Sequence record: JX128259
Source of the DNA: Escherichia phage ECML-134
DNA length: 64,000 nucleotides
Strand: one strand, 5' to 3'
Shown piece by piece: positions 18,151-39,520 of this stretch; the stretch's first letter is position 1; the number at the start of each line of letters is the position of its first letter. A program made the position numbers and the translations under genes. The notes beneath the pieces were generated by a model. The model saw only the letters and a list, made by a program, of their open reading frames with translations, searched no databases and was not told the DNA's origin.

Positions 18151-19119
18151 TTATTTCAGAAGAGTAACCGTAGCAATTTCTTCCCAATGATTTTTGTCGG
18201 TCATAATAAAGTCAGCAAGATAAAGAGCAGTACGCAGTGAAACATTGCGTAAACGGTTAACATTGACTTTCATCCATGATAATGCTTTATAAGTTTCTTC
18301 ATCAGAAAGACCGCGCTTTTGCATCATGTCGGTTGAAAGAATAACATCTTCAACCCTGACCATAATTTCTTCATTAGTGTGAACACCCAAATCCAAATAA
18401 ACTGAGCGGGACACTAATGCTTGTAAATGTGGAGCAAGTTTAGTACCACGGTCTAATTCGCGGTCAATATCAACGTTTGTGATAAAAACAATCGTTCCTT
18501 TAAATTCAAACTCACGCTCAATGCCTTTTTCTTCTAAGTAAGAAGATGCGGTGCTCCAGCAGACTTTACGGGTCTCTCCAGTGTCCAGAGCAGCTTTCAG
18601 AAGATTAAGAATGTCCATATCAGAGAAAACATCCACATCATCAATCAAAAGGACAGAATTCTCTTCACGATTATTCCAAAGCTGTTCATAAAGACCGATA
18701 CCAGAGATTTTACCATTAATGCTTTTATACTCAATGTATCCAATATCATTTGCTTTATTTAAAGCTTTATCTAAAGAATACGTTTTACCAATACCCGCCG
18801 CACCAGAGATAATTAATGAACGAATGTTTCCGTTAATAATACCATTCGTCATCATTCCCATAACATTAAATCTTTTATTAATGCGGGTTTTCATATCTTC
18901 ATATGATTCTTTAACTTCTTCAACTTTTACACCATCATATGAAATGTCTGATTTGTAAACCCAAACACCGCGACGCTTACCGTCAATTTCAACAAAAACT
19001 TTACCATCTCCTTGTGCATCTACCGGAGCATTATCTGGGAACCATTCACCTAAGAGCTCAAAAGTTCCAGAGATTTCTTTACCGAAGTAGATACCCTTAT
19101 TGATAGTTACAGTTTTCAT
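18151..19119 (-). CDS. P-loop NTPase (AAA-like ATPase)
   Basis: Walker A SGAAGIGKTYS and Walker B VLLIDDVD; start at MKTVTIN after ggagaataaa RBS. Confidence 0.65.
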   Translation of the reverse strand: MKTVTINKGIYFGKEISGTFELLGEWFPDNAPVDAQGDGKVFVEIDGKRRGVWVYKSDISYDGVKVEEVKESYEDMKTRINKRFNVMGMMTNGIINGNIRSLIISGAAGIGKTYSLDKALNKANDIGYIEYKSINGKISGIGLYEQLWNNREENSVLLIDDVDVFSDMDILNLLKAALDTGETRKVCWSTASSYLEEKGIEREFEFKGTIVFITNVDIDRELDRGTKLAPHLQALVSRSVYLDLGVHTNEEIMVRVEDVILSTDMMQKRGLSDEETYKALSWMKVNVNRLRNVSLRTALYLADFIMTDKNHWEEIATVTLLK

Positions 19120-19166
19120 TTTATTCTCCAATCTCACATTTGTTTTGATAGGGTAATAGTATCACA
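19111..19166 (-). repeat. Promoter-leader cassette, copy A (about 55 nt, near-identical to 39065-39119)
   Basis: ttttcattttattctccaatctcacatttgttttgatagggtaatagtatcac versus the same string with one mismatch at 39065-39119. Confidence 0.7.
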
Positions 19167-19195
19167 CTACTACCCTTCTGTAAACAATTTATTTT
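19145..19195 (-). promoter_or_regulatory. Early promoter with stem-loop, upstream of the ATPase gene
   Basis: tgtaaaca at 19179-19186; -10 region inside hairpin gggtaatagt...actactaccc. Confidence 0.5.
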
Positions 19196-19452
19196 AACGT
19201 TCGCCAAATTTTTACTGCTTCACGGCGAGATACTTCTACAGCTCCAAGTTCTACAGCTTTTTGGCGTCGGCGAGCGTGTAAGTCATAATGTTTAATGCGT
19301 TTATCTTGAAACCAAGAACGTTTCATTCCTATTGCTTCTGCCATTTCATGAAGCTCTTCAATATCTCCATCAGTGAACATATGACAATTTTTAGTTGGAT
19401 GACCGCGAAGTTTCCATCCATGATTCATTAAAACATCTACGTAAACTGTCAT
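19189..19452 (-). CDS. Hypothetical conserved small protein
   Basis: 87 aa ORF with His/Cys residues (HGW...CHMF); 4-nt overlap with upstream ORF. Confidence 0.45.
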   Translation of the reverse strand: MTVYVDVLMNHGWKLRGHPTKNCHMFTDGDIEELHEMAEAIGMKRSWFQDKRIKHYDLHARRRQKAVELGAVEVSRREAVKIWRTLK

Positions 19453-19598
19453 TGATTCTTCTCCAAATAAGTTTCGATAATTTTCTGAGCGAGATAAACT
19501 GCATTATCTTCAGTTGCATCTTCTAAGAAACTTTCAAAACACTCTGAAATTTCTTCTGTGTCAATCAACTTTTTTACTTCAATTGGTGTAATTTTCAT
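19449..19598 (-). CDS. Hypothetical small acidic protein
   Basis: Start at MKITPIEVKK after an early promoter at 19625-19672. Confidence 0.35.
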   Translation of the reverse strand: MKITPIEVKKLIDTEEISECFESFLEDATEDNAVYLAQKIIETYLEKNQ

Positions 19599-19624
19599 TT
19601 TGTTTTTCCGTTTAAGTGTTTGTT

Positions 19625-19672
19625 TTGATAGTTGTATAGTACCATAAAGCTTTATGCTTGTAAACAATTTTG
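19625..19672 (-). promoter_or_regulatory. Early promoter
   Basis: tgtaaaca at 19659-19666 plus gatagttgtatagtacca. Confidence 0.5.
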
Positions 19673-19689
19673 TGAAAAATTTTTGAAAT

Positions 19690-19713
19690 AAAAAAGGGAG
19701 CCCGAAGGCTCCC
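19690..19713 (-). terminator. Intrinsic terminator after the nucleotidyltransferase gene
   Basis: Reverse strand GGGAGCC-ttcg-GGCTCCC followed by TTTTTT. Confidence 0.6.
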
Positions 19714-19715
19714 TA

Positions 19716-20729
19716 TCATTTATAATAACTTCGGTGGTTTTCAAGATAAACCCTCTCAAGGAAGTCATCCCAGAAACCCATGTCTACTTTTTGCTGCATA
19801 CCGTTCTTAGAAGCTTCAGTAGATGCTGCTTCTACTTGATCGACCACATCTTCCAAAAACTCTTGAACTGTTTTAAATGGATGTTTACCCAACTTCACGT
19901 CGAGAATAAATGGAGCATCTTGAAGTGGATAAACCAAGTCACCAGTTTTGTAAATTTCCAATAGTTGGAGTCCACCACGGCAAGCATGACTCAAAGCTTT
20001 CCAGTCAATACCTTCATTGGCTTCGGCCTTACGAGCGCGTTCACCATATTCAGCATCTAATTTGTTCAGTGACTGCTTAAGCTCAATAAGAGAAAGAGTT
20101 GTCTGATATTTACGACCCAACACAGTGTAGAACGTTTGTGGGCCTGTTTTCTCATGATTATGGAACACCCATTCACAGAATTCGTTTTCTGGAAGACGAT
20201 GCTTAATATCTTCAACTTTAGTACGACGCTGCTTAATGGAACCGTCTTCTTGGTAATCAACCCATTGCTCAGGGATTTGATTAACTACTTTCAATACATC
20301 ACGTAATGCAGCCAAACGAGAACCCTTGACGCCGTATTTAGAAGCTTGCTTGCGGACATATCCTAAATATGATTTCATGTTAGTCGTATAAAAACGAGAA
20401 CGGTTGTCTTGAATAAACTTCCACACATCAGGCAAATCAGATTTAACCACCAGTTCAGGTGGAGTGTGAAGCATATCCAATGCTACAGTTTCACCATCTG
20501 CTGCTAATTTAAAGAAATACTTAAGACTATACAATTCGTGGTCAATATCATCTTTAGTGTTTTTAGATGATGTGTTGTTGGTGTTTTTACTCATGTGCTC
20601 TTTGACATTTCCGATAAGAATATCGCGAGCAGGAGGAACAAAAATTTCTTTAAAATCTACATCAGATTCTGGAGTAGAAGTTCCATAAAGATGACTACCA
20701 AAATAGCTTTTCATTACTGTTTTCATCAT
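19716..20729 (-). CDS. Pol-beta superfamily nucleotidyltransferase, function unknown
   Basis: 337 aa; N-terminal GS-x11-DVD motif (YFGSHLYGTSTPESDVDF) and downstream acidic strand (VALDMLH); helical C-terminal region; ATGA overlap with upstream gene. Confidence 0.6.
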   Translation of the reverse strand: MMKTVMKSYFGSHLYGTSTPESDVDFKEIFVPPARDILIGNVKEHMSKNTNNTSSKNTKDDIDHELYSLKYFFKLAADGETVALDMLHTPPELVVKSDLPDVWKFIQDNRSRFYTTNMKSYLGYVRKQASKYGVKGSRLAALRDVLKVVNQIPEQWVDYQEDGSIKQRRTKVEDIKHRLPENEFCEWVFHNHEKTGPQTFYTVLGRKYQTTLSLIELKQSLNKLDAEYGERARKAEANEGIDWKALSHACRGGLQLLEIYKTGDLVYPLQDAPFILDVKLGKHPFKTVQEFLEDVVDQVEAASTEASKNGMQQKVDMGFWDDFLERVYLENHRSYYK

Positions 20730-21187
20730 TCAGCCTTATATTCAATAACAGGACATACTTTAGCTTTACGGGCTTTTAAAAATTCGACGATAATAGATTT
20801 CTTGGGTTGAATAGGAGGTAAACCTTTATACGCCCTATCAATATTTTCTACATGTAAAGCATAATCCTTTTTCCATTTATAATCTTTATATTTTTCATGC
20901 AGTTGTGCAGGAATAACAAATGAACCAATAATAAGTAAAACAAGCAAAATGGCAAATATAAATGCTGATGGAATAAGAGTCCATAAACTACCAAAAATAA
21001 TCCATTTCTGTATGATTTCTGCGCAGATGATAGTTAGACCTGTGAGTATAGTACATCCGAAAAAAGAAACGAAAAATGTAGGGATAACAATAGACCAAAA
21101 GTATGCACACAGTGTCTTAGGTCGTTTCCATTCATCATTAAACAGTTTGAATAATTTATAGTGCCAAGAGTTTTCATTAATAATCAT
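20726..21187 (-). CDS. Hypothetical integral membrane protein
   Basis: 153 aa; about three hydrophobic helices; coupled to the nucleotidyltransferase gene. Confidence 0.55.
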   Translation of the reverse strand: MIINENSWHYKLFKLFNDEWKRPKTLCAYFWSIVIPTFFVSFFGCTILTGLTIICAEIIQKWIIFGSLWTLIPSAFIFAILLVLLIIGSFVIPAQLHEKYKDYKWKKDYALHVENIDRAYKGLPPIQPKKSIIVEFLKARKAKVCPVIEYKAE

Positions 21188-21189
21188 AA

Positions 21190-21711
21190 TTATCCTTTCA
21201 TTGAAGGTGTAACAGTTGTTAAATACTTAATCATAGCTTCAGCTTCTGATTTTGATAATGAAATTTCTCCATTGTTTTGACGAATAGAAATAAAATCCGG
21301 ATGACGGTCACCACCAGCTTTTAAAACACACATATAAGTATCAGTTTCATCTTCAATATCTGAAATGATTGAAGCAGTTCCACATGAATGTGGTTTTTGA
21401 TAAATCAATACAGCTTTTCTTCCACCGTTTGACTGTTCATAAACTTTTAACACATCAAACAAATCGCTTCTTTTATCAATAGCTAAGATGTTGTTTTCAT
21501 CTTCAATATTAAATCCTTCGGATACTTCATAAAGTGTCACCCATAAATCACCTATATCGATAGTAGCATTTCCTTTTCCACGACTTTCAAGAATATGACA
21601 AATTTTCTTGATTTCGTCATAACTCATTTTAATAATATCATCTCCTTGAATAAGGAAGATGTCATTTTTAAATTCAACATGAATTAAACCACTTCCACTT
21701 GAAATAAACAT
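21190..21711 (-). CDS. Hypothetical protein, paralog of 21718..22275
   Basis: 173 aa; C-terminal ISIRQNNGEISLSKSEAEAMIKYLTTVTPSM resembles the neighbour's C-terminus. Confidence 0.55.
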   Translation of the reverse strand: MFISSGSGLIHVEFKNDIFLIQGDDIIKMSYDEIKKICHILESRGKGNATIDIGDLWVTLYEVSEGFNIEDENNILAIDKRSDLFDVLKVYEQSNGGRKAVLIYQKPHSCGTASIISDIEDETDTYMCVLKAGGDRHPDFISIRQNNGEISLSKSEAEAMIKYLTTVTPSMKG

Positions 21712-21717
21712 ATTTCC

Positions 21718-22275
21718 TCACTTTGAAATCATAGTTGGAATGACAGAATCAAGATAAGTCTTTAGCGCAATAGCTTCGTCTTTGGTAAATGTGACAATAT
21801 GCGATCGAAAATCATCAATTTGACGAATAGTTAAGACATCACCATCTTCATAGCATTTTGATACGTTTAAAACAGTTTCATCATTTTGATTGCAAGCGTT
21901 AGTAATAATAGCATTGCAATTTTTGAGCCATTTTAAACTATGTTTTCTTTCATTAGAATAATAAAAATATTTAATCTTATCTATAAAACTATCCCAATGG
22001 ATAACTGATAAACACATTGACTCACTTTTAATATTAAATCCTGGGCATGAAGAATAAAAATGAATTTTGTGCTCATCATTGATGCTTACTATTTTATCAG
22101 TATAAGGATATTCAATTTGGGTTAAATGAATGATTTCGCTAGGAGTAAAATATAGCATATCGTCTTCTTGTGTCAAACGATACATATTATTTACTTTTTC
22201 TATAGCTAATTCACCAAAAAGCGGACTAACTTCTAATACTAATCGTTTCATATTGATTCTCTTCGACTCACTCAC
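21718..22275 (-). CDS. Hypothetical protein, paralog of 21190..21711
   Basis: 185 aa; C-terminal LTIRQIDDFRSHIVTFTKDEAIALKTYLDSVIPTM; first gene after promoter region 22276-22440; track start codon may be GTG. Confidence 0.5.
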   Translation of the reverse strand: MSESKRINMKRLVLEVSPLFGELAIEKVNNMYRLTQEDDMLYFTPSEIIHLTQIEYPYTDKIVSINDEHKIHFYSSCPGFNIKSESMCLSVIHWDSFIDKIKYFYYSNERKHSLKWLKNCNAIITNACNQNDETVLNVSKCYEDGDVLTIRQIDDFRSHIVTFTKDEAIALKTYLDSVIPTMISK

Positions 22276-22404
22276 AATTACATACTCCTTTGAATAATAT
22301 CAATAATGTTGTTCACCAGATTATAAGTAAACATTGGATAATTATATTGAATCATCACATACACAACAAACAAAACTTTCATTCTCTTCTCCTTGGCAGT
22401 TGAC

Positions 22405-22445
22405 AAGATTACTATATCATAACCTTGCCAACTTGTAAACCATTA
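22405..22445 (-). promoter_or_regulatory. Early promoter upstream of the four-gene operon
   Basis: Reverse strand GTTTACA -17 nt- TATAGT (plus coordinates 22434-22440 and 22411-22416). Confidence 0.5.
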
Positions 22446-22616
22446 AATGACGTTTTCAATAAAATTCTGAAGCTTTGGGTGAGCATCAACCATGATTTTC
22501 ATTTCTTCCTTTGCGAAAGCTGTACCTCTTTCCCTAGCAGAATACTCATAGTCAGAAACTGCATTAGCATATTCTTCAATTAGCTTCATTAAAAACATCT
22601 GCTTTTCAGTTTTCAT
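22443..22616 (-). CDS. Small hypothetical protein (57 aa)
   Basis: Own reading: MKTEKQMFLMKLIEEYANAVSDYEYSARERGTAFAKEEMKIMVDAHPKLQNFIENVI; below ORF-track cutoff. Confidence 0.3.
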   Translation of the reverse strand: MKTEKQMFLMKLIEEYANAVSDYEYSARERGTAFAKEEMKIMVDAHPKLQNFIENVI

Positions 22617-22800
22617 TATTCCACCTAATCATTTCAAGATATTGAACTAACTTAGCTTTGGATTTATCCAAATCCTTTTTAGCTGCTTCTATACCATCGT
22701 ATGAGTATCCTTCACAATGCTCAACTGCTAATTGGTATGAATCTATTTCAATATCACGTGCTAATTTAATGATTTTTTCAAACTGTTCACTTGTCAGCAT
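22606..22800 (-). CDS. Hypothetical small protein
   Basis: 64 aa acidic ORF. Confidence 0.4.
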   Translation of the reverse strand: MLTSEQFEKIIKLARDIEIDSYQLAVEHCEGYSYDGIEAAKKDLDKSKAKLVQYLEMIRWNNEN

Positions 22801-22802
22801 AC

Positions 22803-23006
22803 TTAAACTCTCGTATTATGATCGATAATTTCATCAAGAAACATATCTAAAGCTTCTACAGCATTATCAACTTTAGCTTCAAGTTCTTCAGCGCCTTTAT
22901 TTGCAATGCCTGCCGAAAACCAAGCAAAGTCACTAAGTTCCTCATCTGCTTTGCGAATTAAAGCTACCAATTCTTTAATTTTATCTGCTTGTTCAATGCT
23001 AGTCAT
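22803..23006 (-). CDS. Hypothetical small acidic protein
   Basis: Internal start MTSIEQ gives a TAATG junction with the upstream ORF. Confidence 0.4.
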   Translation of the reverse strand: MTSIEQADKIKELVALIRKADEELSDFAWFSAGIANKGAEELEAKVDNAVEALDMFLDEIIDHNTRV

Positions 23007-23194
23007 TATTCCACCACATATGAAAGAGAGAATATTGCACACGCCATATGAGTTGCAGCTTCATCACACATATCATAACTTTCCTTAAGAAGTTCTACAA
23101 GTTCTTCACTAGTAACTTCATCCATGTCGACGAAAAAATCACCATTAATGATGACGTAGATATTTCCTTCTTGATTAAGTGCTTCAATTTTCAT
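23006..23194 (-). CDS. Hypothetical small acidic protein
   Basis: Start MKIEALNQ after aagaggag RBS; early promoter at 23215-23255. Confidence 0.4.
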
Positions 23195-23214
23195 GATGTT
23201 CTCCTCTTTATCCG

Positions 23215-23255
23215 ATAGTTGTATAGTATCACAGCTCAAATGGAAAGTAAACCGG
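23215..23255 (-). promoter_or_regulatory. Early promoter
   Basis: gtaaac at 23247-23252 and atagtatcac -10 region. Confidence 0.5.
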
Positions 23256-23261
23256 TAAAAT

Positions 23262-23284
23262 GAAAAAAGTCTCCCGAAGGAGAC
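23262..23284 (-). terminator. Intrinsic terminator
   Basis: Reverse strand hairpin GTCTCC-ttcg-GGAGAC followed by TTTTTT. Confidence 0.55.
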
Positions 23285-23289
23285 TAATG

Positions 23290-23676
23290 TTATTCGAGGG
23301 AAAGAAGATATTTACTCTGGTAAAACATCCCAGTAATATCATCTATCGTGCTTTGAATGGCTGGAGGCATTTCTTTATAAATGCTGTTAGATTGGTCTAG
23401 TATGCGATCAATCATTTTAATTGTGTCGGTAGGAAGTTTACTGGCATCTGGAATAGAAGGCGTGTATTTTCTACCAGAATACCCCAAATATTGCTCACCA
23501 AATTTATCAATCAAATCTGGCAACTCAGAGAAAATAAAATCGTATGCTTTGTGTCTAGCATAACTTTTAGTTTCAAAATGCGCAGAATGAAAATAAGCTT
23601 GTGCAGCCATTAATAAACCTAAGTATTCATCTGCCTTTGAAGGTTTTCCACTTTGTGAAAAGTCGCTGAATTTCAT
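23290..23676 (-). CDS. Hypothetical protein (rI.-1-like position)
   Basis: 128 aa; 4-nt overlap with rI; terminator hairpin downstream. Confidence 0.5.
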
Positions 23677-23966
23677 TCAGTCTCCAATTTAATGTTCATA
23701 ATTCTAGCGTATGATTGTGCCATCTCCGCGCCTCGCTCTATACATTCAAAATCGGAAGAGCACGGGTCATTTTTATAAGTCGTTCGCATAAAACTATAGA
23801 ACTGTTCAGATGATTCTACGCTTTTATTTTCAAAAAGCATATAAACGTGTCTAATACCAGATTCCATAAATTTATCAAAATGAGGATCGACATTCGCTTC
23901 AATTGGTGGAGATAAAGCAAACGCTAATCCTAGCATGGCAAATAGTGCCGTTGCTTTTAAGGCCAT
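23673..23966 (-). CDS. rI: Lysis-inhibition regulator rI
   Basis: 97 aa; N-terminal signal-anchor MALKATALFAMLGLAFALS; matches recalled T4 rI in sequence and length. Confidence 0.75.
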   Translation of the reverse strand: MALKATALFAMLGLAFALSPPIEANVDPHFDKFMESGIRHVYMLFENKSVESSEQFYSFMRTTYKNDPCSSDFECIERGAEMAQSYARIMNIKLETE

Positions 23967-23978
23967 AAAGGCCTCCTA

Positions 23979-24191
23979 TCATTTTTGTCCTGTATTTACT
24001 TTATGCCGATGCACGGCCTTAACTTTATCAAGGTATTTTTCAAAATTTCGCAATCTAGTATAGTCTGCCGGAGATTGGTTGAGTGATACTTCTCGACGCA
24101 AAGCTGAAATGATATTTCCAACTTCCCTACGAATTTCATCTAATTGAAGAACAGTAAGATTGCGAAGTTGCTTTTCAGTTAATTGTAGCAT
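23979..24191 (-). CDS. Hypothetical protein (rI.1-like position)
   Basis: 70 aa basic ORF between tk and rI. Confidence 0.45.
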
Positions 24192-24233
24192 ATATACCCC
24201 TTTAGTTAGATAAACCTATTTATAACTTTTGCA

Positions 24234-24815: not shown

Positions 24816-24824
24816 ATCACCTTC

Positions 24825-29494: not shown

Positions 29495-29530
29495 CATGAA
29501 TTGTCCATTTCTGTATTTACCCATTACCGC
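29495..29530 (-). repeat. About 34-nt repeat, copy 1
   Basis: catgaattgtccatttctgtatttacccattacc versus catgaattgtccatttctatatttacccattacc at 30144-30178. Confidence 0.6.
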
Positions 29531-29613
29531 ACTTGGGCTCGACCTTATTACAGGTTGGCGGGAATCCCTCACAGAATCATGAGGTCCAGCTTGTTCCCAT
29601 ATTTCTTATTTGC

Positions 29614-30087
29614 TTATTTGAATGATTTAACGTACTGAATAGAGCCTTTACTATTCACGAAAGCGATTTTACCATTTTTATTATACATGGTAGCAGTACG
29701 CTGATAGCCATAAGTTTGCTTACCAGATTGATAACCAACTAATGCAAAATTATCTTCACCCATTTTATTCTGTTTAGCACGAATACGTTCATGACCATGT
29801 GCCATAAGAACTTTAGCATCACCAGTTGCAATGGATCTACGAGTTTTTTCATCTTCAACTGTATTAACAAAATCGTCAAATGAATCAAATTTAGCATGTG
29901 ATTTATTATACAGTTTTCCATCTACTGCATAATTATATCCTTGTACATCCATCTCAACTTCTGTACCATCATCTAATACAGCAGTAATTTTCTGTCCTTT
30001 TTTAAATTTCAAAAGATCAGTAAAAGATTCAGCAATAATTTGAGAATTAATAGCTGCTTCAGTAATAAATTCTTGATATGTTTTCAT
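29614..30087 (-). CDS. Internal-protein-like capsid-targeted protein
   Basis: N-terminal MKTYQEFITEA matches the T4 internal-protein capsid targeting sequence; 157 aa. Confidence 0.6.
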   Translation of the reverse strand: MKTYQEFITEAAINSQIIAESFTDLLKFKKGQKITAVLDDGTEVEMDVQGYNYAVDGKLYNKSHAKFDSFDDFVNTVEDEKTRRSIATGDAKVLMAHGHERIRAKQNKMGEDNFALVGYQSGKQTYGYQRTATMYNKNGKIAFVNSKGSIQYVKSFK

Positions 30088-30143
30088 GTATATCCTTTAA
30101 ATGTAAATAGTGTTATTATTTAAGTTTTGGACAATTCACACAC

Positions 30144-30178
30144 ATGAATTGTCCATTTCTATATTTACCCATTACCAG
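30144..30178 (-). repeat. About 34-nt repeat, copy 2, adjacent to perfect hairpin tgaattgtcca/tggacaattca
   Basis: See copy 1; the hairpin at about 30128-30160 has an 11-bp stem. Confidence 0.6.
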
Positions 30179-30195
30179 GTTCGAACTCGGCTTTA

Positions 30196-30777
30196 TTAAG
30201 AATTACCGCGGGCTGCATTAGCAACAGCGTAAGCGTACTGAACATTAGCGTCTTTAAACGTACCTTTAGAGGTATCTAGTTCTGCCTTAAAGCCGCCTTT
30301 AGTCATAACCTCGGCGAATTCTTTACGGAAAGCCATTGCATCAAGGCTTCTCCATGACGATTTGTGCTTGGCGAATTCAAGACCAGCGTAGTTGACAGCC
30401 TTAGCTAATTTATTATCAATAACCCATTTACCAGCTTTAGGCACAAACACCGGGCCTTTCTGTTTAGAGAATAGTTTTAAATTCCAGCGACGAAGGTCAC
30501 CGTCAGCTTTAACAAAAGCTGCGTCCAAGTTACTAGCAACAACATCTTGAATATGGCCAAATTTAAGCCCATCAACTTCAATATTTAAATCTGTACGCCA
30601 GCGAAGTCCTTCCCAAGCGAAAGCTTTAAAGTCAGAAGCTTTTGTAGCTAAGTATCGTTCAATAGGGGCTGTTTTAGGGTCAAAGCCGTTTCCCGATCGG
30701 TAGGTCCACTCATCTTTATTAATGCCTTTGGCCTTTTCCACAGAAGCTTCAGCGATAAATTCTTTATACGTTTTCAT
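30196..30777 (-). CDS. ipIII: Internal protein III-like
   Basis: 193 aa; N-terminal MKTYKEFIAEA targeting sequence; position just before e as in T4; size close to T4 IPIII. Confidence 0.65.
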   Translation of the reverse strand: MKTYKEFIAEASVEKAKGINKDEWTYRSGNGFDPKTAPIERYLATKASDFKAFAWEGLRWRTDLNIEVDGLKFGHIQDVVASNLDAAFVKADGDLRRWNLKLFSKQKGPVFVPKAGKWVIDNKLAKAVNYAGLEFAKHKSSWRSLDAMAFRKEFAEVMTKGGFKAELDTSKGTFKDANVQYAYAVANAARGNS

Positions 30778-31379: not shown

Positions 31380-31380
<1 letters not shown>

Positions 31381-33615: not shown

Positions 33616-33656
33616 TCCTATTTACTCCAAGTAATAGGGGCCGAAGCCCCTTATCA

Positions 33657-34250
33657 TTATTTCAGAGAATTAATGTATTCCTGAACATCGGCAGAGGTAG
33701 TTTCAACCCCAGAAATATTACCATTAAAGGTTTCAACTCGAGCAAGAGTATCTTCAATATCAACCTTAGTCAGCGCTGCAATTTCAACTACATCATCGGC
33801 AGTACTAATTCCAAGGGCATTCGCTGCACGAGTTTCACGGATATATTCCAATTTAACTGCAAGTTCTTGGCGAGCATCATCTAACTCAACTACTTTCTTA
33901 GCGATTTCAATTCGCATTTCAGCATAACCATCAGCTTTAGTAGTCAGCTGTTCAGCTGTTCGACGATATAGCAAACCGAGTTTAGCATGCATTGTTACAT
34001 CTTGACCTTCGGAAAGAAGCTTGCGAATTTCACGCTCTTTTGATTCAGCCTGTTTATTCTTTTCAACAATAAGTTCACGAATACGTTTTTCTTCATTAAT
34101 AGATTTAACAGAAGCAGTTTTTAGGTCTTTAATTTTATCAAGCAGTTTTGCTGCTGCGACAGTATACTGTTCTTCAACAGATAGATTTTTAGCCATAGCA
34201 GAACCAAGTTTAGTGCGAATAAACTCAACAATTTTCTTCAGTGTGTTCAT
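33657..34250 (-). CDS. PspA/IM30-like coiled-coil protein (tentative)
   Basis: 197 aa, all-helical composition; local matches to E. coli PspA as recalled (R-x-AAN block, LARVETF vs MARFESF). Confidence 0.45.
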
Positions 34251-34357
34251 AGTATTTCCTTAGGTTGATTAAGATTTAAAATCCGTGAGAGTATTAGTAT
34301 TATACTCTATCTTCAAGTTATGGGCTCATAATATCTCAATCATGAGCCCGTGTAAAC

Positions 34358-34621
34358 TTATTTCATATTATTGAAATATTCTTCTACGATTTCATCGTTA
34401 TCATGGTAAACTTTAGAAGACAGTTTAACATAACCTTCAGCAGTGAACATGTTAATCACAACCTTTACAGTATACCACTGACCGTCTTCATTACCCATTA
34501 CTGCATAGGTTTCAAACATCGGATGGTCAGGACCGATAACTTTAATATCATTCACTGTACGACCAAAATCTTCTGAAACACATTTCATAAAGAAGTTGAA
34601 CAGTTCGCCGTAATTATCCAT
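34358..34621 (-). CDS. Hypothetical small protein
   Basis: Start at MDNYGELFNFF after an early promoter at 34660-34705. Confidence 0.45.
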   Translation of the reverse strand: MDNYGELFNFFMKCVSEDFGRTVNDIKVIGPDHPMFETYAVMGNEDGQWYTVKVVINMFTAEGYVKLSSKVYHDNDEIVEEYFNNMK

Positions 34622-34659
34622 TTCGTTCTCCAAGTTGTTTTTCTGTATCAGTAGTTGAT

Positions 34660-34705
34660 AGTTGTATAGTACCATGGAAGAACAGGGATGTAAACAGTTT
34701 TGTGA
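34660..34705 (-). promoter_or_regulatory. Early promoter
   Basis: tgtaaaca at 34689-34696 with gatagttgtatagtacca. Confidence 0.5.
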
Positions 34706-34825
34706 AAAAATTTTTAAAAAGTTTTGGGGAATTCTAGGGCGGGGAGGGGCAATTAAAGGATAGGATAATATATTATAAAGGGTATAAACTAAATGATGCC
34801 TAGAGAGGTCCAGAAAGGCCTAGAT

Positions 34826-34852
34826 ACCAAAAAGCCCTATCATTTAGATAGG
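34826..34852 (-). terminator. Intrinsic terminator after internal-protein-like gene
   Basis: Reverse strand hairpin CCCTATC-taaat-GATAGGG followed by CTTTTT. Confidence 0.5.
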
Positions 34853-34861
34853 GATTTAAAA

Positions 34862-35425
34862 TTATTTACCTAGTTTAGTTATTATAGCTTCTGCAGCAGC
34901 TTTTAGCTTAGATGCAGTGTTAATACGATTTTTAATTTCAGTATACGCATCGCCAAGAACATCAAGGCTATCAGAATAAACACTTACACTATTGCGTTCG
35001 CTATTTGAAATAGAACCTTTAGTTTTACGATCAAAATCGGTGTACACGTCTTGAAGATCGCGGGCTGCCTTCTTTGCATCATCCAATGCATCAAGAGCTT
35101 TATTCAAAGCATTGACATATTTTTTAGTGTCAAACATATTCTTAGAAATTTTAACAGGTACACGTTCAGGAGTAGCTAATGCAGATTTAGGAACCTGAGC
35201 GCCAGATGCCAATTTCTTAGAAATTTTGAAAAATGCTTTATTAAAACTATTTTCTTGGCTCATCGTAAAAGAACTGTTATCGATGTTATACATTTCAATA
35301 GCTTTAGCTTTCCACTTAAGAAAATCGCCGCGGTCTTTTGGGTCCAAGTGGAAGAATACTTTAGTAAGATCTGCTTCAGATGGTAATTTTGCTGCTTCGG
35401 TTAAAAATTCTGCATAGGTTTTCAT
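34862..35425 (-). CDS. Internal-protein-like capsid-targeted protein
   Basis: N-terminal MKTYAEFLTEA; 187 aa; terminator hairpin downstream. Confidence 0.55.
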   Translation of the reverse strand: MKTYAEFLTEAAKLPSEADLTKVFFHLDPKDRGDFLKWKAKAIEMYNIDNSSFTMSQENSFNKAFFKISKKLASGAQVPKSALATPERVPVKISKNMFDTKKYVNALNKALDALDDAKKAARDLQDVYTDFDRKTKGSISNSERNSVSVYSDSLDVLGDAYTEIKNRINTASKLKAAAEAIITKLGK

Positions 35426-35518
35426 TTAAAATCCTTGAAATAATCTATCGGTTGGTTATTAATTATTTATTACTTTGTTATTATCCGTAACAGCGTTATC
35501 CGAGTGATTCAAACTAAA

Positions 35519-35541
35519 AAGCCCCAACCTTTCGGCTGGGG
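35519..35541 (-). terminator. Intrinsic terminator
   Basis: Reverse strand hairpin GCCCCAGCC-gaaa-GGTTGGGGC followed by TTTTT. Confidence 0.55.
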
Positions 35542-35550
35542 CTAAGAATG

Positions 35551-36024
35551 TTATTTGATTTGTTTAGCAGACCAAATGCGGTCTTTAATAATTTTTTGGA
35601 TGTCTTCAACATACTCAAGAGAGTGAGCATGTGGGTTATCTTTGAAACTATAAGCACGAGCTAGCTTTTGACCTTCGGTTTTGATTACTAAAAGCTCTTT
35701 AAGGATAGCTTCATATTTAGCGATAATTCCTTTAACGATATTTTTTTCTTGTGCAGCTTTAGGATCTGCTTTAGGAGCAGGTTTACCCGAAGCCTTTGCA
35801 AAAGCAGCGCCAGTAGCAACTAGACTTTTCCAGGCCATACTAACCGCATTTCCTGTAAATCCTTCTGCTTTCATGTCACGAGCAAATTGGAATCGCGATT
35901 CGTCAGAAGCATCTTTATAAGAATATTTACCCGCTGCAATGGCTGCTTTTGCGACAGCTTGAATTTCGGTGCTAGATGCTTCATTTAACACCGCTTCATT
36001 TAAAAATTGAGTATATGATTTCAT
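35551..36024 (-). CDS. Internal-protein-like capsid-targeted protein
   Basis: N-terminal MKSYTQFLNEA; 157 aa; late-promoter motif and terminator upstream. Confidence 0.55.
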   Translation of the reverse strand: MKSYTQFLNEAVLNEASSTEIQAVAKAAIAAGKYSYKDASDESRFQFARDMKAEGFTGNAVSMAWKSLVATGAAFAKASGKPAPKADPKAAQEKNIVKGIIAKYEAILKELLVIKTEGQKLARAYSFKDNPHAHSLEYVEDIQKIIKDRIWSAKQIK

Positions 36025-36064
36025 CTTATTTCCTGTTTTAATTCGTGGATTTAATATACTACTA

Positions 36065-36072
36065 TATTTATA
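36065..36072 (-). promoter_or_regulatory. Late promoter motif upstream of internal-protein-like gene
   Basis: Reverse-strand TATAAATA about 40 nt upstream of start at 36024. Confidence 0.5.
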
Positions 36073-36079
36073 CCAAAAA

Positions 36080-36102
36080 GCCCCAACCTTTCGGTCGGGG
36101 CT
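36080..36102 (-). terminator. Intrinsic terminator closing the tRNA/stable-RNA unit
   Basis: Reverse strand hairpin GCCCCGACC-gaaa-GGTTGGGGC followed by TTTTT; near-duplicate of 35519-35541. Confidence 0.55.
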
Positions 36103-36150
36103 AAGCCTTGCGGCAACCTTGTCGGGGTTCCACCTGCTAAGGCAAGTGTT

Positions 36151-36245
36151 TGTACGAAACGCCGGGATTCGAACCCGGTTATTAAGTAGTTGACGCTACT
36201 CAATATTTTTAAAAGGCCATATCTCGACCATATCCGAACGTTCCG
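36151..36245 (-). ncRNA. tRNA-like stable RNA candidate (non-canonical; possibly a T4 RNA C/D analogue)
   Basis: Reverse strand has a canonical T-arm CCGGGTTCGAATCCCGG and a 7-bp acceptor-like helix CGGAACG/CGTTTCG, but no standard D or anticodon arm. Confidence 0.3.
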
Positions 36246-36249
36246 TCAA

Positions 36250-36418
36250 AAACGCTACTCGGCTTATGGCAAAGATATTTCCTCGAATCGATAATTCGGT
36301 GCGCCGTTTCTGCTGTGATATAAGGGGGCATTAACAAAACATAAAGATTTATTAATGCCAGTCCTTAAACAGGGAACATCAGTCCGACGACTTGCCGGTA
36401 GCGACCCGGCTTCTTGTC
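36250..36418 (-). ncRNA. Possible second structured stable RNA between tRNA-Arg and the terminator
   Basis: No ORF; hairpins cgaatcgataattcg and gccggtagcgacccggc; co-transcribed position. Confidence 0.15.
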
Positions 36419-36494
36419 TGGTCGAGGCAGTAGGGATCGAACCTACGACCCAGGACTTAGAAGGTCCTTGCTCTTCCTTCTGAGCTATGCCTCG
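36419..36494 (-). tRNA. tRNA-Arg (anticodon UCU)
   Basis: Manual fold of reverse strand: acceptor CGAGGCA/TGCCTCG, D-stem GCTC/GAGC, anticodon stem AGGAC/GTCCT with loop CTTCTAA, T-arm GTAGG-TTCGATC-CCTAC, encoded CCA. Confidence 0.8.
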
Positions 36495-36498
36495 TATT

Positions 36499-36573
36499 TG
36501 GCGGACGTGATAGGATTCGAACCTATAACCAATCGCTTAACAGGCGATCGCTCTGCCATTGAGCTACACATCC
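36499..36573 (-). tRNA. tRNA-Asn (anticodon GUU)
   Basis: Manual fold: acceptor GGATGTG/CACGTCC, anticodon stem ATCGC/GCGAT with loop CTGTTAA, T-loop GGTTCGAATCC, encoded CCA. Confidence 0.75.
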
Positions 36574-36577
36574 AAAT

Positions 36578-36664
36578 TGGTGGGGAGTGGTGGAGTCGAA
36601 CCACCCGAGTCGCAATGACAATGGATTTACAGTCCACACCGCTACCTCTACGGGATAACTCCCC
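36578..36664 (-). tRNA. tRNA-Tyr (anticodon GUA), class II with long variable arm
   Basis: Manual fold: acceptor GGGGAGT/ACTCCCC, anticodon stem GTGGA/TCCAT with loop CTGTAAA, T-arm GGTGG-TTCGACT-CCACC, 87 nt, encoded CCA. Confidence 0.7.
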
Positions 36665-36673
36665 AAATTAATT

Positions 36674-36748
36674 TGGTGGCCCTGGGTGGAATTGAACCAC
36701 CATCTGGCGATTATGAGTCGCTTGCTTGAACCTTCCAGCTACAGGGCC
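36674..36748 (-). tRNA. tRNA-Ile/Met (anticodon CAU)
   Basis: Manual fold: acceptor GGCCCTG/CAGGGCC, anticodon loop CTCATAA, T-loop GGTTCAATTCC; one nt from tRNA-Thr (Thr-Ile dimer as in T4). Confidence 0.75.
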
Positions 36749-36749
36749 T

Positions 36750-36825
36750 TGGTGCTGATTGACGGAATCGAACCGCCGACCTTCTCATTACAAGTGAGTT
36801 GCTCTACCTACTGAGCTAAATCAGC
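36750..36825 (-). tRNA. tRNA-Thr (anticodon UGU)
   Basis: Manual fold: acceptor GCTGATT/AATCAGC, D-arm AGCTCAGTAGGTAGAGC, anticodon loop CTTGTAA, T-loop GGTTCGATTCC, encoded CCA. Confidence 0.8.
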
Positions 36826-36830
36826 AAAAC

Positions 36831-36920
36831 TGGCGGAGGCGATAGGATTTGAACCTATGAGTCGCCGGAGCGACTTCCGGTTTTCAAGACCGGTGCATTA
36901 AACCACTCTGCCACGCCTCC
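36831..36920 (-). tRNA. tRNA-Ser (anticodon UGA), class II
   Basis: Manual fold: acceptor GGAGGCG/CGCCTCC, anticodon stem CCGGT/ACCGG with loop CTTGAAA, long variable arm, 90 nt, encoded CCA. Confidence 0.8.
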
Positions 36921-36926
36921 AAATAT

Positions 36927-37535
36927 TTATATATTGTTAATTTGATTTAGAATTCTTTTTGCTTGAGTATGACTTACGCCAATATGCTTAGCATATTTAG
37001 ATAATTCACCACGTTTAGAAAAATCATATAATTTAGAAATTTCTATTCTTCTTTTTCTTTCATCCGCAGAAACTTTTGCTTCGTTTGCTTTTGCTATTTT
37101 ACGTTTAGCTTCTTGAGAATGAGTTTTACCAGCAAAGCCATTCTTCATTAATCCATTTGAAGACCATCCTTTTAATTTTCCGTTAGAATGTGCCTTTTTA
37201 ACACCCAATGAAATTAATTCGCGTTGCTGGTCTGTCATAGGATAATTATTTATATGATCCCATCCACCTTCACCGCCAAGTTTTAAATTATACACATCTG
37301 GTCTATTTAAAAACTCTTCTGTAACAATATTTTTCTCGGCTTTAAGCATAGATTCTTTATCATCAAAATACTCTAATATTTCTTTAGAAAAATTTTCTAT
37401 GCCATACTTATCTTGGGCTCTTTTTAATAATTTACCAGAACCCATATATCCATCATCTAAATTTTCGGTAGAATGCACACCAATATAAATTTTATTATTA
37501 ATTTTATTTGTTATTTTATAAAGATAAAAATGCAT
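36927..37535 (-). CDS. segB: GIY-YIG homing endonuclease SegB-like, embedded in the tRNA cluster
   Basis: GIY-YIG motifs FYLYKITNKINNKIYIGVH...YMGSG near the N-terminus; start MHFYLYK after aggga RBS; between tRNA-Gly and tRNA-Ser. Confidence 0.8.
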   Translation of the reverse strand: MHFYLYKITNKINNKIYIGVHSTENLDDGYMGSGKLLKRAQDKYGIENFSKEILEYFDDKESMLKAEKNIVTEEFLNRPDVYNLKLGGEGGWDHINNYPMTDQQRELISLGVKKAHSNGKLKGWSSNGLMKNGFAGKTHSQEAKRKIAKANEAKVSADERKRRIEISKLYDFSKRGELSKYAKHIGVSHTQAKRILNQINNI

Positions 37536-37581
37536 ATCAGTCCCTAATAAAGAACTGAGCGTCTCACGACGAGTCATAAAT

Positions 37582-37655
<74 letters not shown>

Positions 37656-37660
37656 AAATT

Positions 37661-37747
37661 TGGTGCGAGAAGTGGGACTCGAACCCACAAGGAAATCATT
37701 CCGCAGCATTTTAAGTGCTGTGCCTTTACCAATTTGACCATTCTCGC
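37661..37747 (-). tRNA. tRNA-Leu (anticodon UAA), class II
   Basis: Manual fold: acceptor GCGAGAA/TTCTCGC, anticodon stem CAGCA/TGCTG with loop CTTAAAA, long variable arm, 87 nt, encoded CCA. Confidence 0.8.
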
Positions 37748-37748
37748 G

Positions 37749-37821
37749 CTGGGAATAAAGGACTCGAACCTTTGCATCCTGGAATCAAAATCCAGTGCCT
37801 TACCAACTTGGCTAATTCCCA
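37749..37821 (-). tRNA. tRNA-Gln (anticodon UUG), CCA not encoded; two nt from tRNA-Leu (Gln-Leu dimer)
   Basis: Manual fold: acceptor TGGGAAT/ATTCCCA, anticodon stem CTGGA/TCCAG with loop TTTTGAT, T-loop GGTTCGAGTCC. Confidence 0.75.
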
Positions 37822-37918
37822 ATTATTAACAAAGGCTCTCTAACAAGAACCCTTGATGATAGAGGGTATTAATCAGTGCGGTATGAGTTAATAATAACAA
37901 ATAATTCTTAAAGCATAT

Positions 37919-38206
37919 TTACCATTTATGATAATACGTATTTACGATACATTCAAGACTTAAAGGATTCTTGAAAATATCATATTCAAGAGGACCTTTT
38001 TCTGTTTCAATAAAGAAATCAAAATTTACTGTATTAAATTTACGGTCTTCCTTCACTAATTTAACCTGAGAAGATGAACGGTCAATGTAAACCTTTTCAA
38101 CTTCAAAACATGTTAAAATGCCATAATCATCAATCAAGGCTTTAGCTGCTTCTTGATCATATTTATATCCATTTTCAACGGATGATACTTTCGCATAAAG
38201 AATCAT
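37919..38206 (-). CDS. Hypothetical protein
   Basis: 95 aa ORF downstream of the tRNA cluster. Confidence 0.45.
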   Translation of the reverse strand: MILYAKVSSVENGYKYDQEAAKALIDDYGILTCFEVEKVYIDRSSSQVKLVKEDRKFNTVNFDFFIETEKGPLEYDIFKNPLSLECIVNTYYHKW

Positions 38207-38208
38207 TA

Positions 38209-38592
38209 TCAGCCTTCATCAACAATAGTATGAGTATGGGCATTTACGATTTGCCACCAATCAAAGCGATTAGAACCATACATCGGTTTGTTTTCATTTT
38301 CTTTGATAATATCACGGAGTTCATCTTCGGTAGCGGCTTTCGCGATTAAATCAGCATATCCACCACGAGGATAATAATTATCACCTGCAAAAAGTAAAAA
38401 ATTTGGTGTAATATTATTGAACTCTTCAAGAGTAATAACTGTTCCTGATGGTAGTTGAACAATCTCTACATAGTTATATCCTAATTTTTGAGCAGCATCT
38501 ACTGCTTCAAGCAGAGTATCATGAGCCCGTCCTATTTGGCAATTTGGCTTTTTAGATGGATTAGCCTGATAATCCGCGTACACTTTATACAT
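38209..38592 (-). CDS. Hypothetical protein
   Basis: Start at MYKVYADYQ; about 127 aa. Confidence 0.45.
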   Translation of the reverse strand: MYKVYADYQANPSKKPNCQIGRAHDTLLEAVDAAQKLGYNYVEIVQLPSGTVITLEEFNNITPNFLLFAGDNYYPRGGYADLIAKAATEDELRDIIKENENKPMYGSNRFDWWQIVNAHTHTIVDEG

Positions 38593-38593
38593 T

Positions 38594-38779
38594 CTATTCA
38601 CCTTTAGAAATTTTATCCATAGCAATAGCAATTAAACCAATTAAAAATGCTACTACAAGTGAAAACACATTTTCTGCTGTAGTTAATAATCCGCATATAA
38701 ATCCAACAAACATTGAAAAACTAAAAGCGGAAGCAGAAATTGCAATAGCAACATTTCGAATTAATTCACAGCGTTTCAT
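38594..38779 (-). CDS. Small hydrophobic membrane peptide
   Basis: 61 aa; two hydrophobic helices; early promoter with stem-loop at 38800-38842. Confidence 0.45.
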   Translation of the reverse strand: MKRCELIRNVAIAISASAFSFSMFVGFICGLLTTAENVFSLVVAFLIGLIAIAMDKISKGE

Positions 38780-38799
38780 TTTATTCTCCTCAGTAGTTG

Positions 38800-38842
38800 A
38801 TAGGGTAATAGTATCACTACCCTATCTAAAAGTAAACTTATT
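38800..38842 (-). promoter_or_regulatory. Early promoter with perfect stem-loop
   Basis: gatagggta-atagtatcac-taccctatc hairpin around the -10; gtaaac at 38832-38837. Confidence 0.5.
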
Positions 38843-39071
38843 TTTTACGAAAAATTGATTTATTTTCTGCTGCCCATTTTTCAATAACTGCAGCAGGACC
38901 AGTAACAACAATTTTATCACCGTAATCTTCTGCAGCGAGTTGACCGAAATTATCTAATGCATCACGAAGAACTCCATGAGGCATTTCGCCCATTTTATCT
39001 TTCTTGCCAATGTAAATAAACTCAACTTTTACATCAGCAGCTTCAGCAATAAATTCTTGATACGTTTTCAT
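38838..39071 (-). CDS. Internal-protein-like capsid-targeted protein (ipI position)
   Basis: Start MKTYQEFIAEA (exact T4 targeting sequence) after ggagaataaa RBS; about 77 aa. Confidence 0.6.
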   Translation of the reverse strand: MKTYQEFIAEAADVKVEFIYIGKKDKMGEMPHGVLRDALDNFGQLAAEDYGDKIVVTGPAAVIEKWAAENKSIFRKK

Positions 39072-39119
39072 TTTATTCTCCAATTTCACATTTGTTTTGA
39101 TAGGGTAATAGTATCACTA
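39065..39119 (-). repeat. Promoter-leader cassette, copy B
   Basis: See copy A; includes RBS, start codon and -10 region of the downstream gene. Confidence 0.7.
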
Positions 39120-39150
39120 CTAAAACCCCGTGTAAACAACTTTGTGAAAT
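39100..39150 (-). promoter_or_regulatory. Early promoter upstream of the ipI-position gene
   Basis: tgtaaaca at 39131-39138; gatagggtaatagtatcactac -10 region; A/T-rich upstream element. Confidence 0.5.
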
Positions 39151-39156
39151 TGTTTA

Positions 39157-39447
39157 TTACAAAAGATTTTTAGCAATAATCTTGAGATGTGCTGCAGAAA
39201 TGTGTTTAGCTTTAAACAACGCAGTTTCTTCGGCAGGAGAGATAACGATTGTAGCACCATCCTTTTTAGCAGACCACCCATCACCTAGGTAAACAGTACC
39301 TTTGATTTCTTCGCCATCAACCAGACTAATCATTGGTTTACCTTCTCGTCCTTTATTTGCTTTAATAACTTCAGAAGTAAGAGTAGCTTCGGTAATGGTA
39401 GAAACCGGGGTAGTTGTAGTAGAAGTAAATTCTTTAAATGTTTTCAT
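39157..39447 (-). CDS. Hypothetical protein with degenerate internal-protein-like N-terminus
   Basis: 96 aa; MKTFKEFTSTTTTP...; early promoter with perfect stem-loop at 39470-39520. Confidence 0.5.
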   Translation of the reverse strand: MKTFKEFTSTTTTPVSTITEATLTSEVIKANKGREGKPMISLVDGEEIKGTVYLGDGWSAKKDGATIVISPAEETALFKAKHISAAHLKIIAKNLL

Positions 39448-39469
39448 TTTTATTTTCCTAATTAATTTT

Positions 39470-39520
39470 GATGAGGTAATAGTATCACTACCTCATCAGT
39501 ATGTAAACAACTTTGTGAAA
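39470..39520 (-). promoter_or_regulatory. Early promoter with perfect stem-loop
   Basis: gatgaggta-atagtatcac-tacctcatc hairpin; tgtaaaca at 39502-39509. Confidence 0.5.

Follow-up and report, generated by a model that had tools for sequence, protein, structure and literature searches.

Predicted early promoters in the window

The 64,000-nucleotide (nt) stretch of Escherichia phage ECML-134 analyzed here (from sequence record JX128259; hereafter, the window) belongs to a T4-like genome (Tequatrovirus). It contains 14 short promoter cassettes, all on the minus strand, and in many of these the -10 element is enclosed by a hairpin. Over the 4 kb that was compared, the window is 99.7% identical to Escherichia phage vB_EcoM_SCS4, and hundreds of T4-like phages are 95-98% identical to it. 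The proteins of T4 are colinear on the window: those of gene 46 through gene 4 map to the minus strand, and beyond them come late genes on the plus strand. No promoter features are annotated in the RefSeq or GenBank records of T4.

The cassettes were identified with the motif GTTTAC-N18-TAnnnT, which matches the window 16 times, always on the minus strand (versus 0.96 ± 1.0 matches, with a maximum of 4, in 100 shuffles). Fourteen of the 16 matches are intergenic, in short gaps, and lie upstream of an open reading frame (ORF) with a Shine-Dalgarno (SD) sequence. The initial annotation had proposed at least 12 minus-strand early promoters with a GTTTACA box, and this holds up: 11 of the 14 are inside 19111-39520 and there are three more at 17744, 14776, and 7395. 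As in T4-type early promoters, a GTTTAC(A) -35 is joined to a TAnnnT -10 with the spacing TTTACA-N17. All but one of the 14 promoters (P34357) have an extended -10 (TGn). An A/T-rich, UP-like region is visible 5' of the -35 (consensus tttcacaaagtt), and it is part of the upstream gene's coding sequence wherever that gene runs up to the -35. The distance from the -10 to the ATG is 27-44 nt in 12 of the 13 promoters for which it was measured.

Twelve of the 14 promoters have a near-identical counterpart in T4, at an equivalent position and before the same early genes. The other two (P19185 and P38837) lack a counterpart because T4 has a single chimeric promoter at each of these sites. Also, the depositors of phage fPS-65 independently annotated a "predicted early promoter" in the same three gaps of the ipI locus. 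Only the T4-specific motif was informative, as a scan with generic sigma-70 consensus sequences gave no enrichment in this AT-rich DNA (85 matches versus 84.5 in shuffles, and 72 versus 59). TGTAAAC by itself was barely enriched (18 versus 11).

Judging from their sequences, we identify these elements as putative sigma-70-dependent early promoters of a T4-like phage. Each would comprise a GTTTAC(A) -35 with an A/T-rich region 5' of it, a spacer that counts as 17 base pairs (bp) in the E. coli convention, TGn, and a TAnnAT -10; these would be followed by an A-rich leader, a GGAG or GAGG SD sequence, and the ATG. By analogy to T4, we infer their start sites and their early timing, with use by the host's RNA polymerase immediately after infection.

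There are further exact matches to GTTTAC-N18-TATAAT within coding sequence, at 6921-6950 (in 55.5) and at 11458-11487 (in 49.1). Both are conserved in T4 and neither has a TGn. The match at 11458-11487, some 40 nt upstream of pin, might be a genuine internal promoter.

Hairpins around the -10 element

Six of the 14 promoters in the window have their -10 enclosed by a perfect stem of 7 bp or more, while 0.49 are expected and the maximum was 3 across 2,000 shuffles. The mean stem length is 6.57 bp, compared to 4.57 ± 0.23 bp in shuffles. When each cassette was folded as RNA, eight of the 14 (at 39508, 38837, 34357, 30844, 27464, 22440, 19185, and 17744) had z ≤ -3, with z ranging from -3.1 to -5.8 and free energies from -10 to -22 kcal/mol, and P39137 was marginal. 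The initial annotation had stated that at least 12 promoters share the hairpin. This was overstated: the hairpin is supported for eight promoters and marginally for a ninth, and there is no signal for the remaining five. Thus, not every cassette includes the hairpin. A scan of the window with Rfam identified only tRNAs.

Stems quoted in the initial annotation at 38800, 39470, and 30808 are correct. The one at 39470 belongs to P39508 (39445-39508, including the leader and the ATG of ipI), which has its -35 at 39508-39503 and its -10 at 39484-39479, between the arms TGATGAGGTA (39498-39489) and TACCTCATCA (39478-39469). It folds at -17.4 kcal/mol (z = -4.7) and is identical to the T4 promoter at 73939, and the downstream gene matches IPI_T4 from Pfam. 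P38837 (38777-38837, including the leader and the ATG of trna.4) has the arms GATAGGGTA (38826-38818) and TACCCTATC (38807-38799), with a fold of -16.4 kcal/mol (z = -3.5), and the upstream stop codon abuts its -35. In P30844 (30775-30844; z = -3.1), which precedes ipIII, the -10 is within the 8-nt loop between AACTGTGA (30828-30821) and TCACAGTT (30812-30805); the T4 stem is AATTGTGA/TCACAATT, which is a compensatory change of C:G to T:A.

Two other promoters have a similar arrangement. P34357 (34248-34357; -19.1 kcal/mol, z = -5.0) precedes e.6, and the stop codon of e.8 abuts its -35. The perfect-stem scan found GGGCTCAT (34349-34342) and ATGAGCCC (34329-34322) around its -10. At this site in T4, e.7 is inserted and there is a different hairpin promoter, with ATTAGA/TCTAAT. 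P22440 (22380-22440; -19.0 kcal/mol, z = -4.4) precedes mobD.2, and its 9-bp hairpin, GTTGGCAAG/CTTGTCAAC, contains one G.U on the sense strand, whereas the T4 stem is perfect (GTTGACAAG/CTTGTCAAC).

In P27464 and P17744 only, the hairpin has a geometry that could mask the SD sequence, with the 3' arm on the SD and the 5' arm upstream of the internal start site. P27464 (27405-27464; -22.3 kcal/mol, z = -5.8) has a 12-bp stem between its spacer (27455-27444) and the SD sequence of regB itself (27426-27415, which includes GAGGA), and T4 keeps this stem with one G.U pair. P17744 (17684-17744; -19.4 kcal/mol, z = -5.1) precedes nrdC.8 and is identical in T4. Its spacer (17732-17726) pairs with the SD region (17698-17692) over 7 bp, and in the RNA fold this helix is lengthened to 13 bp. 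The remaining hairpins in the window stop 15-25 nt short of the SD.

Four of the five promoters without a hairpin are preceded by a canonical terminator: P34695 (34619-34695; z = +0.5), before e.8, with a terminator at 34853-34835, or 140 nt upstream; P23252 (23192-23252; z = -0.6), before mobD.5, with one at 23285-23268; P19665 (19596-19665; z = -0.7), with one just upstream at 19714-19695; and P7395 (7333-7395; z = +0.5), before 55.6, with one at 7490-7476. The fifth is P14776 (14716-14776), before nrdC.4. The stem that the initial annotation had quoted for it, CCACA/TGTGG at 14750, is only 5 bp and is inside the spacer, and the region folds no better than chance (z = -1.1). Overall, a hairpin is present in 8-9 of the 10 promoters in the window that lack an upstream terminator and in none of the four that have one.

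We then considered other T4-like phages, for which we collected promoters from roughly 1 Mb of T4-like viral contigs, using the motif as the sole criterion; 126 promoters remained after de-replication. A stem of at least 7 bp surrounds the -10 in 28.6% of these, compared to 5-6% of partner-swapped and shuffled controls, and a stem of at least 8 bp in 18%, compared to 1.5% of controls. The 5' arm is in the spacer, and the 3' arm begins just past the -10 hexamer, over the discriminator and start region. Most of the loops are 8-12 nt, and in a minority they are 26-32 nt, with a 3' arm that reaches the SD. In the main pairing register, 47.1% of cells pair, compared to 41.7 ± 1.1% if shuffled (0 of 500 shuffles reached this value) and 36-40% for slid controls. 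Covariation in this register is also elevated (0.258 versus 0.185; again, reached by 0 of 500 shuffles). At the ipI locus of a Mosigvirus, the geometry of the hairpin is kept and the stems are unrelated.

The hairpin does not seem to be an automatic by-product of the motif, as embedded hairpins were found for only 11% of promoters from other phage lineages that have the same -35/TGn/-10 motif and equally tight packing of genes. Two extra harvests from viral contigs (using the TGGTATAAT and TGTTATTAT variants) yielded mostly such lineages, so we used them as a negative control; they added no power to the wobble test that is described below. Separately, many small environmental phage contigs (loci L119-L198) contain GGGGTTTACA...TGGTATAAT promoters with the start codon only roughly 6-15 nt after the -10, and so with very short leaders, and with no embedded hairpins. 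These look like another phage lineage that uses a similar -35.

The relationship to upstream terminators extends beyond the window. Among 94 de-replicated promoters with ORFs on both sides, an embedded stem was present in 50% of those whose upstream stop codon was less than 15 nt from the -35, and in 11% at 30 nt or more (P = 3e-5, Mann-Whitney test). At 30-60 nt, 79% of the promoters instead have a hairpin that precedes the -35. (The automatic finder of upstream stop codons picks spurious frames, so these distance classes are noisy; our comparison within the window uses the real gene ends.) Of the promoters that lack a terminator in the 150 nt upstream, 41% have an embedded stem, compared to 14% of those with one (P = 0.036).

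The embedded stem-loops might be true terminators of upstream transcription, given that they lie where the upstream cistron ends and tend to be missing where a canonical terminator precedes. This is the role given to them by the authors who described similar elements, or promoter-early stem-loops (PeSLs), in other T4-type phages; in their hands, the stem-loop of PeSL211/210 cut lacZ expression as strongly as did rrnB T1 (Arbiol 2010). Nevertheless, we consider this unlikely for the stems studied here. Intrinsic (Rho-independent) terminators have a G/C-rich stem and an immediate U-tract. A U-tract (5 or more T within an 8-nt tail) follows 16 of 20 upstream hairpins but not one of the 33 embedded stems (P = 2e-8). 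The embedded stems average just 1.8 T in the next 8 nt, their arms are 43% GC, and a consensus terminator scan flags none of them. In the same genomes, the upstream hairpins, which have more room, are canonical terminators, with UUCG loops, 54% GC, and a U-tract in 80% of cases. In regB and nrdC.8, the 3' arm is the SD sequence itself.

Alternatively, we tentatively propose, with the odds somewhat against us, that the hairpins without U-tracts are a distinct and selected RNA element, which would occupy the spacer and the discriminator of a sigma-70 promoter, would act only in read-through transcripts, and would substitute for a terminator where genes are tightly packed. It would protect 3' ends or attenuate transcription or, in its long-range form, mask the SD. 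In that case, the same 40 nt would encode both a promoter in the DNA and a structure in the RNA, and recombination in the loop would repeatedly break the pairing, which would then be re-selected.

The inverted repeats could instead act as DNA, either as cruciforms that affect melting or early shut-off or as binding sites for a dimeric protein. In favor of this idea, the -10 is in the loop and the arms flank the melting region, and no mechanism for the shut-off of T4 early promoters is known. But a role that is intrinsic to the promoter does not predict that the presence of the hairpin would depend on the upstream stop codon or terminator, and there are lineages with the same -35/TGn/-10 motif and no hairpins. 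Wobble changes also lean towards sense-strand G.U (6 cases) over A.C (1 case) in real stems, compared to 16 and 14 in controls; among close pairs of orthologous promoters, there were 23 G.U and 13 A.C. We regard this lean as suggestive only. Taken together, we find a DNA-level role to be very improbable. Since the stem sequences of different promoters are unrelated, a sequence-specific binding protein is unlikely, and we rejected the interpretation of these palindromes as operators or other protein-binding sites.

Probable exchange of genes and promoter halves

One indication of exchange between cassettes is a block of 54 nt that occurs twice in the window with just one mismatch, at 19112-19165 (copy A) and at 39064-39117 (copy B). 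The initial annotation had reported this repeat as 55 nt. It extends from TGn through the -10, the leader, and the SD to the third codon. Copy A is in P19185 (19112-19185), which includes the leader and ATG (19119) of nrdC.10 and which has the hairpin AGGGTAGTAGT / ACTATTACCCT (-17.1 kcal/mol, z = -3.15). Copy B is in P39137 (39064-39137), which includes the leader and ATG (39071) of an extra internal-protein (IP) gene and whose hairpin is interrupted or degraded (-14.6 kcal/mol, z = -2.3). The earlier labels for the two downstream genes, as encoding an ATPase and an internal protein, are reasonable: NrdC.10 has weak P-loop/AAA matches that are below Pfam's cut-off, and the extra IP gene belongs to a PHROG family.

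The leaders of the two copies are identical at 34 of 35 positions, while other pairs of promoters in the window have a median of 14/35 and the next-best pair has 25/35. In contrast, the spacers of P19185 and P39137 match at only 4 of 14 positions, which puts the left edge of the block at the TGn/-10 core. Across public phage genomes, the two copies are distributed separately, and they are found together in about 20 records. Copy A goes with an insert before nrdC.10 that encodes a DUF4031 protein, and copy B goes with a particular IP gene. So, the block is a circulating half-cassette rather than a duplication that is private to this phage. We interpret it as a transplanted half-cassette that runs from the -10 to the start codon and now precedes two unrelated genes.

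Both of these sites include genes that are bracketed by cassettes in direct orientation. Between nrdC.11 and nrdC.10, P19665 and P19185 bracket a 49-amino-acid ORF (phrog_6888), which is the first gene of the insert, and a gene for an 87-amino-acid DUF4031 protein (together, 19189-19598 on the minus strand). This insert is absent from T4 and is present in 135 of 556 phage records. Between ipI and trna.4, P39137 and P38837 bracket the extra IP gene (38838-39071 on the minus strand), which encodes 77 amino acids, with the N-terminus MKTYQEFIAE, and which belongs to phrog_8111 ("internal virion protein"). This gene is also absent from T4, and its locus layout is common to only 19 of 610 phage records. 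The nrdC.10 and ipI loci are highly polymorphic among phage records, and the gene content of the ipI locus differs in nearly every relative.

At each of these two sites, T4 lacks the genes and has one promoter. The T4 promoter at 73572, between ipI and trna.4, consists of the upstream half of P39137 and the downstream half of P38837; a stretch of 44 nt in T4 can be aligned with either cassette of the window. In T2, there is another chimeric promoter, in which an ATAGGGT arm is joined to an ipI-type TACCTCATC arm; these arms are mismatched, so the stem is broken. Across T4-like genomes, 19 types of spacer are paired with more than one type of leader, and two sets show all four combinations. If recombination is the cause of these mosaics, as their sequences suggest, then the crossovers probably occurred in the invariant TGnTAnnnT core. 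The suggestion in the initial annotation that the cassettes flank variable ORFs and mediate modular shuffling is thus supported by the bracketed gene sets, the single promoters of T4, the T2 chimera, and the re-assortment of halves.

Another way to explain the similarity of the cassettes is that they share optimal signals for transcription and translation, and that genes arrive in the style of morons, each with its own promoter, so that the repeats have no role in recombination. Indeed, the consensus leader ATCAAAACAAATGAGGAAAATAAAATG recurs in many unrelated promoters of T4-like phages. The breakpoints in gene content are also ambiguous: for 5 of 31 there is a promoter within 60 bp, more than expected for random positions (P = 0.008), but by our rough estimate around 14% of gene boundaries carry a promoter, which is similar, so the enrichment is not compelling. 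However, several observations speak against it: the leaders of the 54-nt block match at 34/35, where other pairs have a median of 14/35, and the block ends sharply at the -10; the arms of the T2 promoter are mismatched and come from two cassettes; spacers and leaders re-assort in all four combinations; and 44 nt at the empty ipI/trna.4 site of T4 align to both flanking cassettes. We therefore think that this explanation is quite improbable.

We propose that these are sigma-70 early promoters that double as recombination-prone repeats and whose hairpin, where present, is an RNA element of read-through transcripts. We estimate the probability of this combined interpretation at roughly 80%. What appears to be the same unit of 40-90 nt recurs in direct orientation before many small early genes, so the copies can serve as substrates for homologous recombination. 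Crossovers in the TGnTAnnnT core would delete, insert, or swap the intervening genes. The hairpin would form in transcripts that read through from upstream. Its arms would fill the promoter's only sequence-free positions, which are the spacer and the discriminator/start region, and the constrained TGn and -10 would be the loop. Most likely, the hairpin is an attenuator that lacks a U-tract, a protective structure for the 3' end of the upstream cistron, or both. In the minority represented by regB and nrdC.8, it would instead mask the downstream SD, and only in read-through RNA.

Several observations weigh against this interpretation. Five of the 14 promoters (P34695, P23252, P19665, P14776, and P7395) show no folding beyond that of shuffles. 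P14776 also breaks the rule about terminators, as it abuts the upstream stop codon, is not preceded by a terminator, and yet lacks a hairpin. In the larger set, a second pairing register (columns 9-16 with 29-36) was indistinguishable from slid controls. The bias towards G.U over A.C is not significant by itself. As for exchange, cassettes are at the edges of only 3 of the 16 gene-content gaps relative to T4 in the early region, and simple recombination between the two cassettes of the window does not account for the leader of T4's nrdC.10. In the literature, we did not find start-site or 3'-end data for this phage or for T4. Finally, among 47 close pairs of orthologous promoters, the arms change as often as other free positions do, most single changes in the arms weaken the stem, and there is only one compensatory double change. 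We looked for purifying selection on the stems among these close pairs and did not find it. The constraint on individual stems thus is weak or short-lived.

The rapid change of the arms, with mostly disruptive changes, might be expected if the hairpins were non-adaptive by-products of quasi-palindrome (template-switch) mutagenesis or of juxtaposition by recombination. Quasi-palindrome mutagenesis is well documented in T4. But the stems have a particular place relative to the -10 and favor one register, they are anticorrelated with upstream terminators, and other lineages with the motif lack them. Furthermore, recombinant promoters tend to break stems rather than to make them. Of the explanations that we considered, this one seems the least probable.

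The gaps with edges in cassettes are at P19665/P19185, at P39137/P38837, and at the site of e.7 (P34357). The remaining gaps involve homing endonucleases (mobB, mobC, I-TevII, mobD, and segB) or other repeats. The set of homing endonucleases is unlike that of T4, as mobB, mobC, I-TevII, and mobD are absent and segB is partial. There is a mob-like HNH ORF between genes 46 and 46.1 (400-1130 in the window). The T4 genes 49.2/49.3 and e.7 are likewise absent.

Two of the gaps that involve other repeats contain IP-like genes. A 1.2-kb segment (34862-36102) that is absent from T4 includes two paralogous IP-like genes (phrog_2280), with the N-termini MKTYAEFLTEA and MKSYTQFLNEA. These are bracketed and separated by near-identical canonical terminators (34853-34835, 35543-35520, and 36102-36079), and a TATAAATA late-promoter-like box follows the terminator at 36.1 kb. 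This is a third IP-type site, and it is bracketed by repeated terminators rather than by promoters. At 29495-30198, a gene for a 157-amino-acid IP-like protein (DUF7412, phrog_3155) takes the place of denV and ipII of T4. On both sides of this gene there are copies of a direct repeat of 56 nt (30198-30143 and 29550-29495, 82% identical), which takes in the start of vs.8. A hairpin of 11 bp without a promoter (30155-30128) occupies the position of T4's ipII promoter, which has a 14-bp hairpin. T4's vs.8 aligns to the window in two overlapping pieces, with its first 32 residues at 29572-29477 and the rest at 29508-28924, which suggests that the start of the gene differs or that its frame changes at the edge of the direct repeat. 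The window also contains nine tRNA genes by Rfam (at 36422-37821), compared to eight in T4, although the hit at 36583-36662 is barely above threshold (30.3 bits).

Comparison with known systems

The early promoters of T4 with UP, -35, TGn, and -10 elements ("uber" sigma-70 promoters) were described in a review (Hinton 2010). They share with the promoters in the window the GTTTAC(A) -35, its spacing, TGn, the TAnnAT -10, and an A/T-rich region further upstream, and we see no essential difference. T4's ipII promoter is lacking in this phage, whose extra genes bring the number of cassettes at two loci to four, compared to two in T4.

At two of the promoters, the arrangement resembles the SD hairpins of T4's e, soc, 49, and I-TevI. 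By this analogy, only read-through transcripts of regB and nrdC.8 would form the inhibitory helix. In the published cases, the nested promoters are late promoters (TATAAATA) and the hairpin times translation, whereas here the promoters are of the early GTTTAC type. Also, most hairpins in the window do not touch the SD.

The T-even phages have repeats at their IP loci as well. Repoila 1994 is credited by Arbiol 2010 with describing PeSL-like, AT-rich elements there. As far as that description goes, the ipI locus of the window is alike, with MKTYQEFIAE N-termini, bracketing promoter repeats, and AT-rich stem-loops. A difference is that in this phage, the half-cassette is also found outside of the IP loci, at nrdC.10.

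The closest precedent is the PeSL. In phages phi1 and RB49, the stem-loop is mostly found between the -35 and -10 elements or overlaps the -10, the cassettes flank variable ORFs, and recombination between copies was proposed (Arbiol 2010). Comeau 2014 extended PeSLs to PST/T4 and to nt-1/KVP40. Their consensus for PST/T4 (TTTACW-N17-TAYWAT, with AGNA-loop-TCNT stems) matches the cassettes of the window in both the promoter and the stems. There are two differences. First, the stems of RB49 and phi1 are G/C-rich, and one was shown to terminate, whereas stems of the type in the window are about 43% GC and never have a U-tract. Second, the stem-loop is present in only 8-9 of the 14 promoters in the window, mainly where no canonical terminator precedes. 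We did not find genome-wide mapping of 5' or 3' ends in T4, or newer functional studies of PeSLs, in the literature.

Since the composite of promoter and stem-loop and its proposed role in shuffling both match the published PeSLs, the finding is already known. The observation is real and its interpretation is supported, but the hairpins were overstated, and the element is an already-known feature of T4-type phages. By itself, the window adds little: it confirms what textbooks say of T4, and also the PeSL idea, in a further Tequatrovirus genome. What we can add is modest: the embedded stem-loops are not canonical terminators, and they arise where there is no upstream terminator or no space for one; crossovers are placed at the -10 core; and the constraint on individual stems is weak. 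The halves of the promoters re-assort like alleles across the pan-genome, so they are clean markers for modular exchange in T4-like phages. And because the embedded stem-loops behave as the counterparts of canonical terminators, our results call into question the label of "terminator" for the stem-loops of PeSLs and suggest a testable role at the level of RNA.

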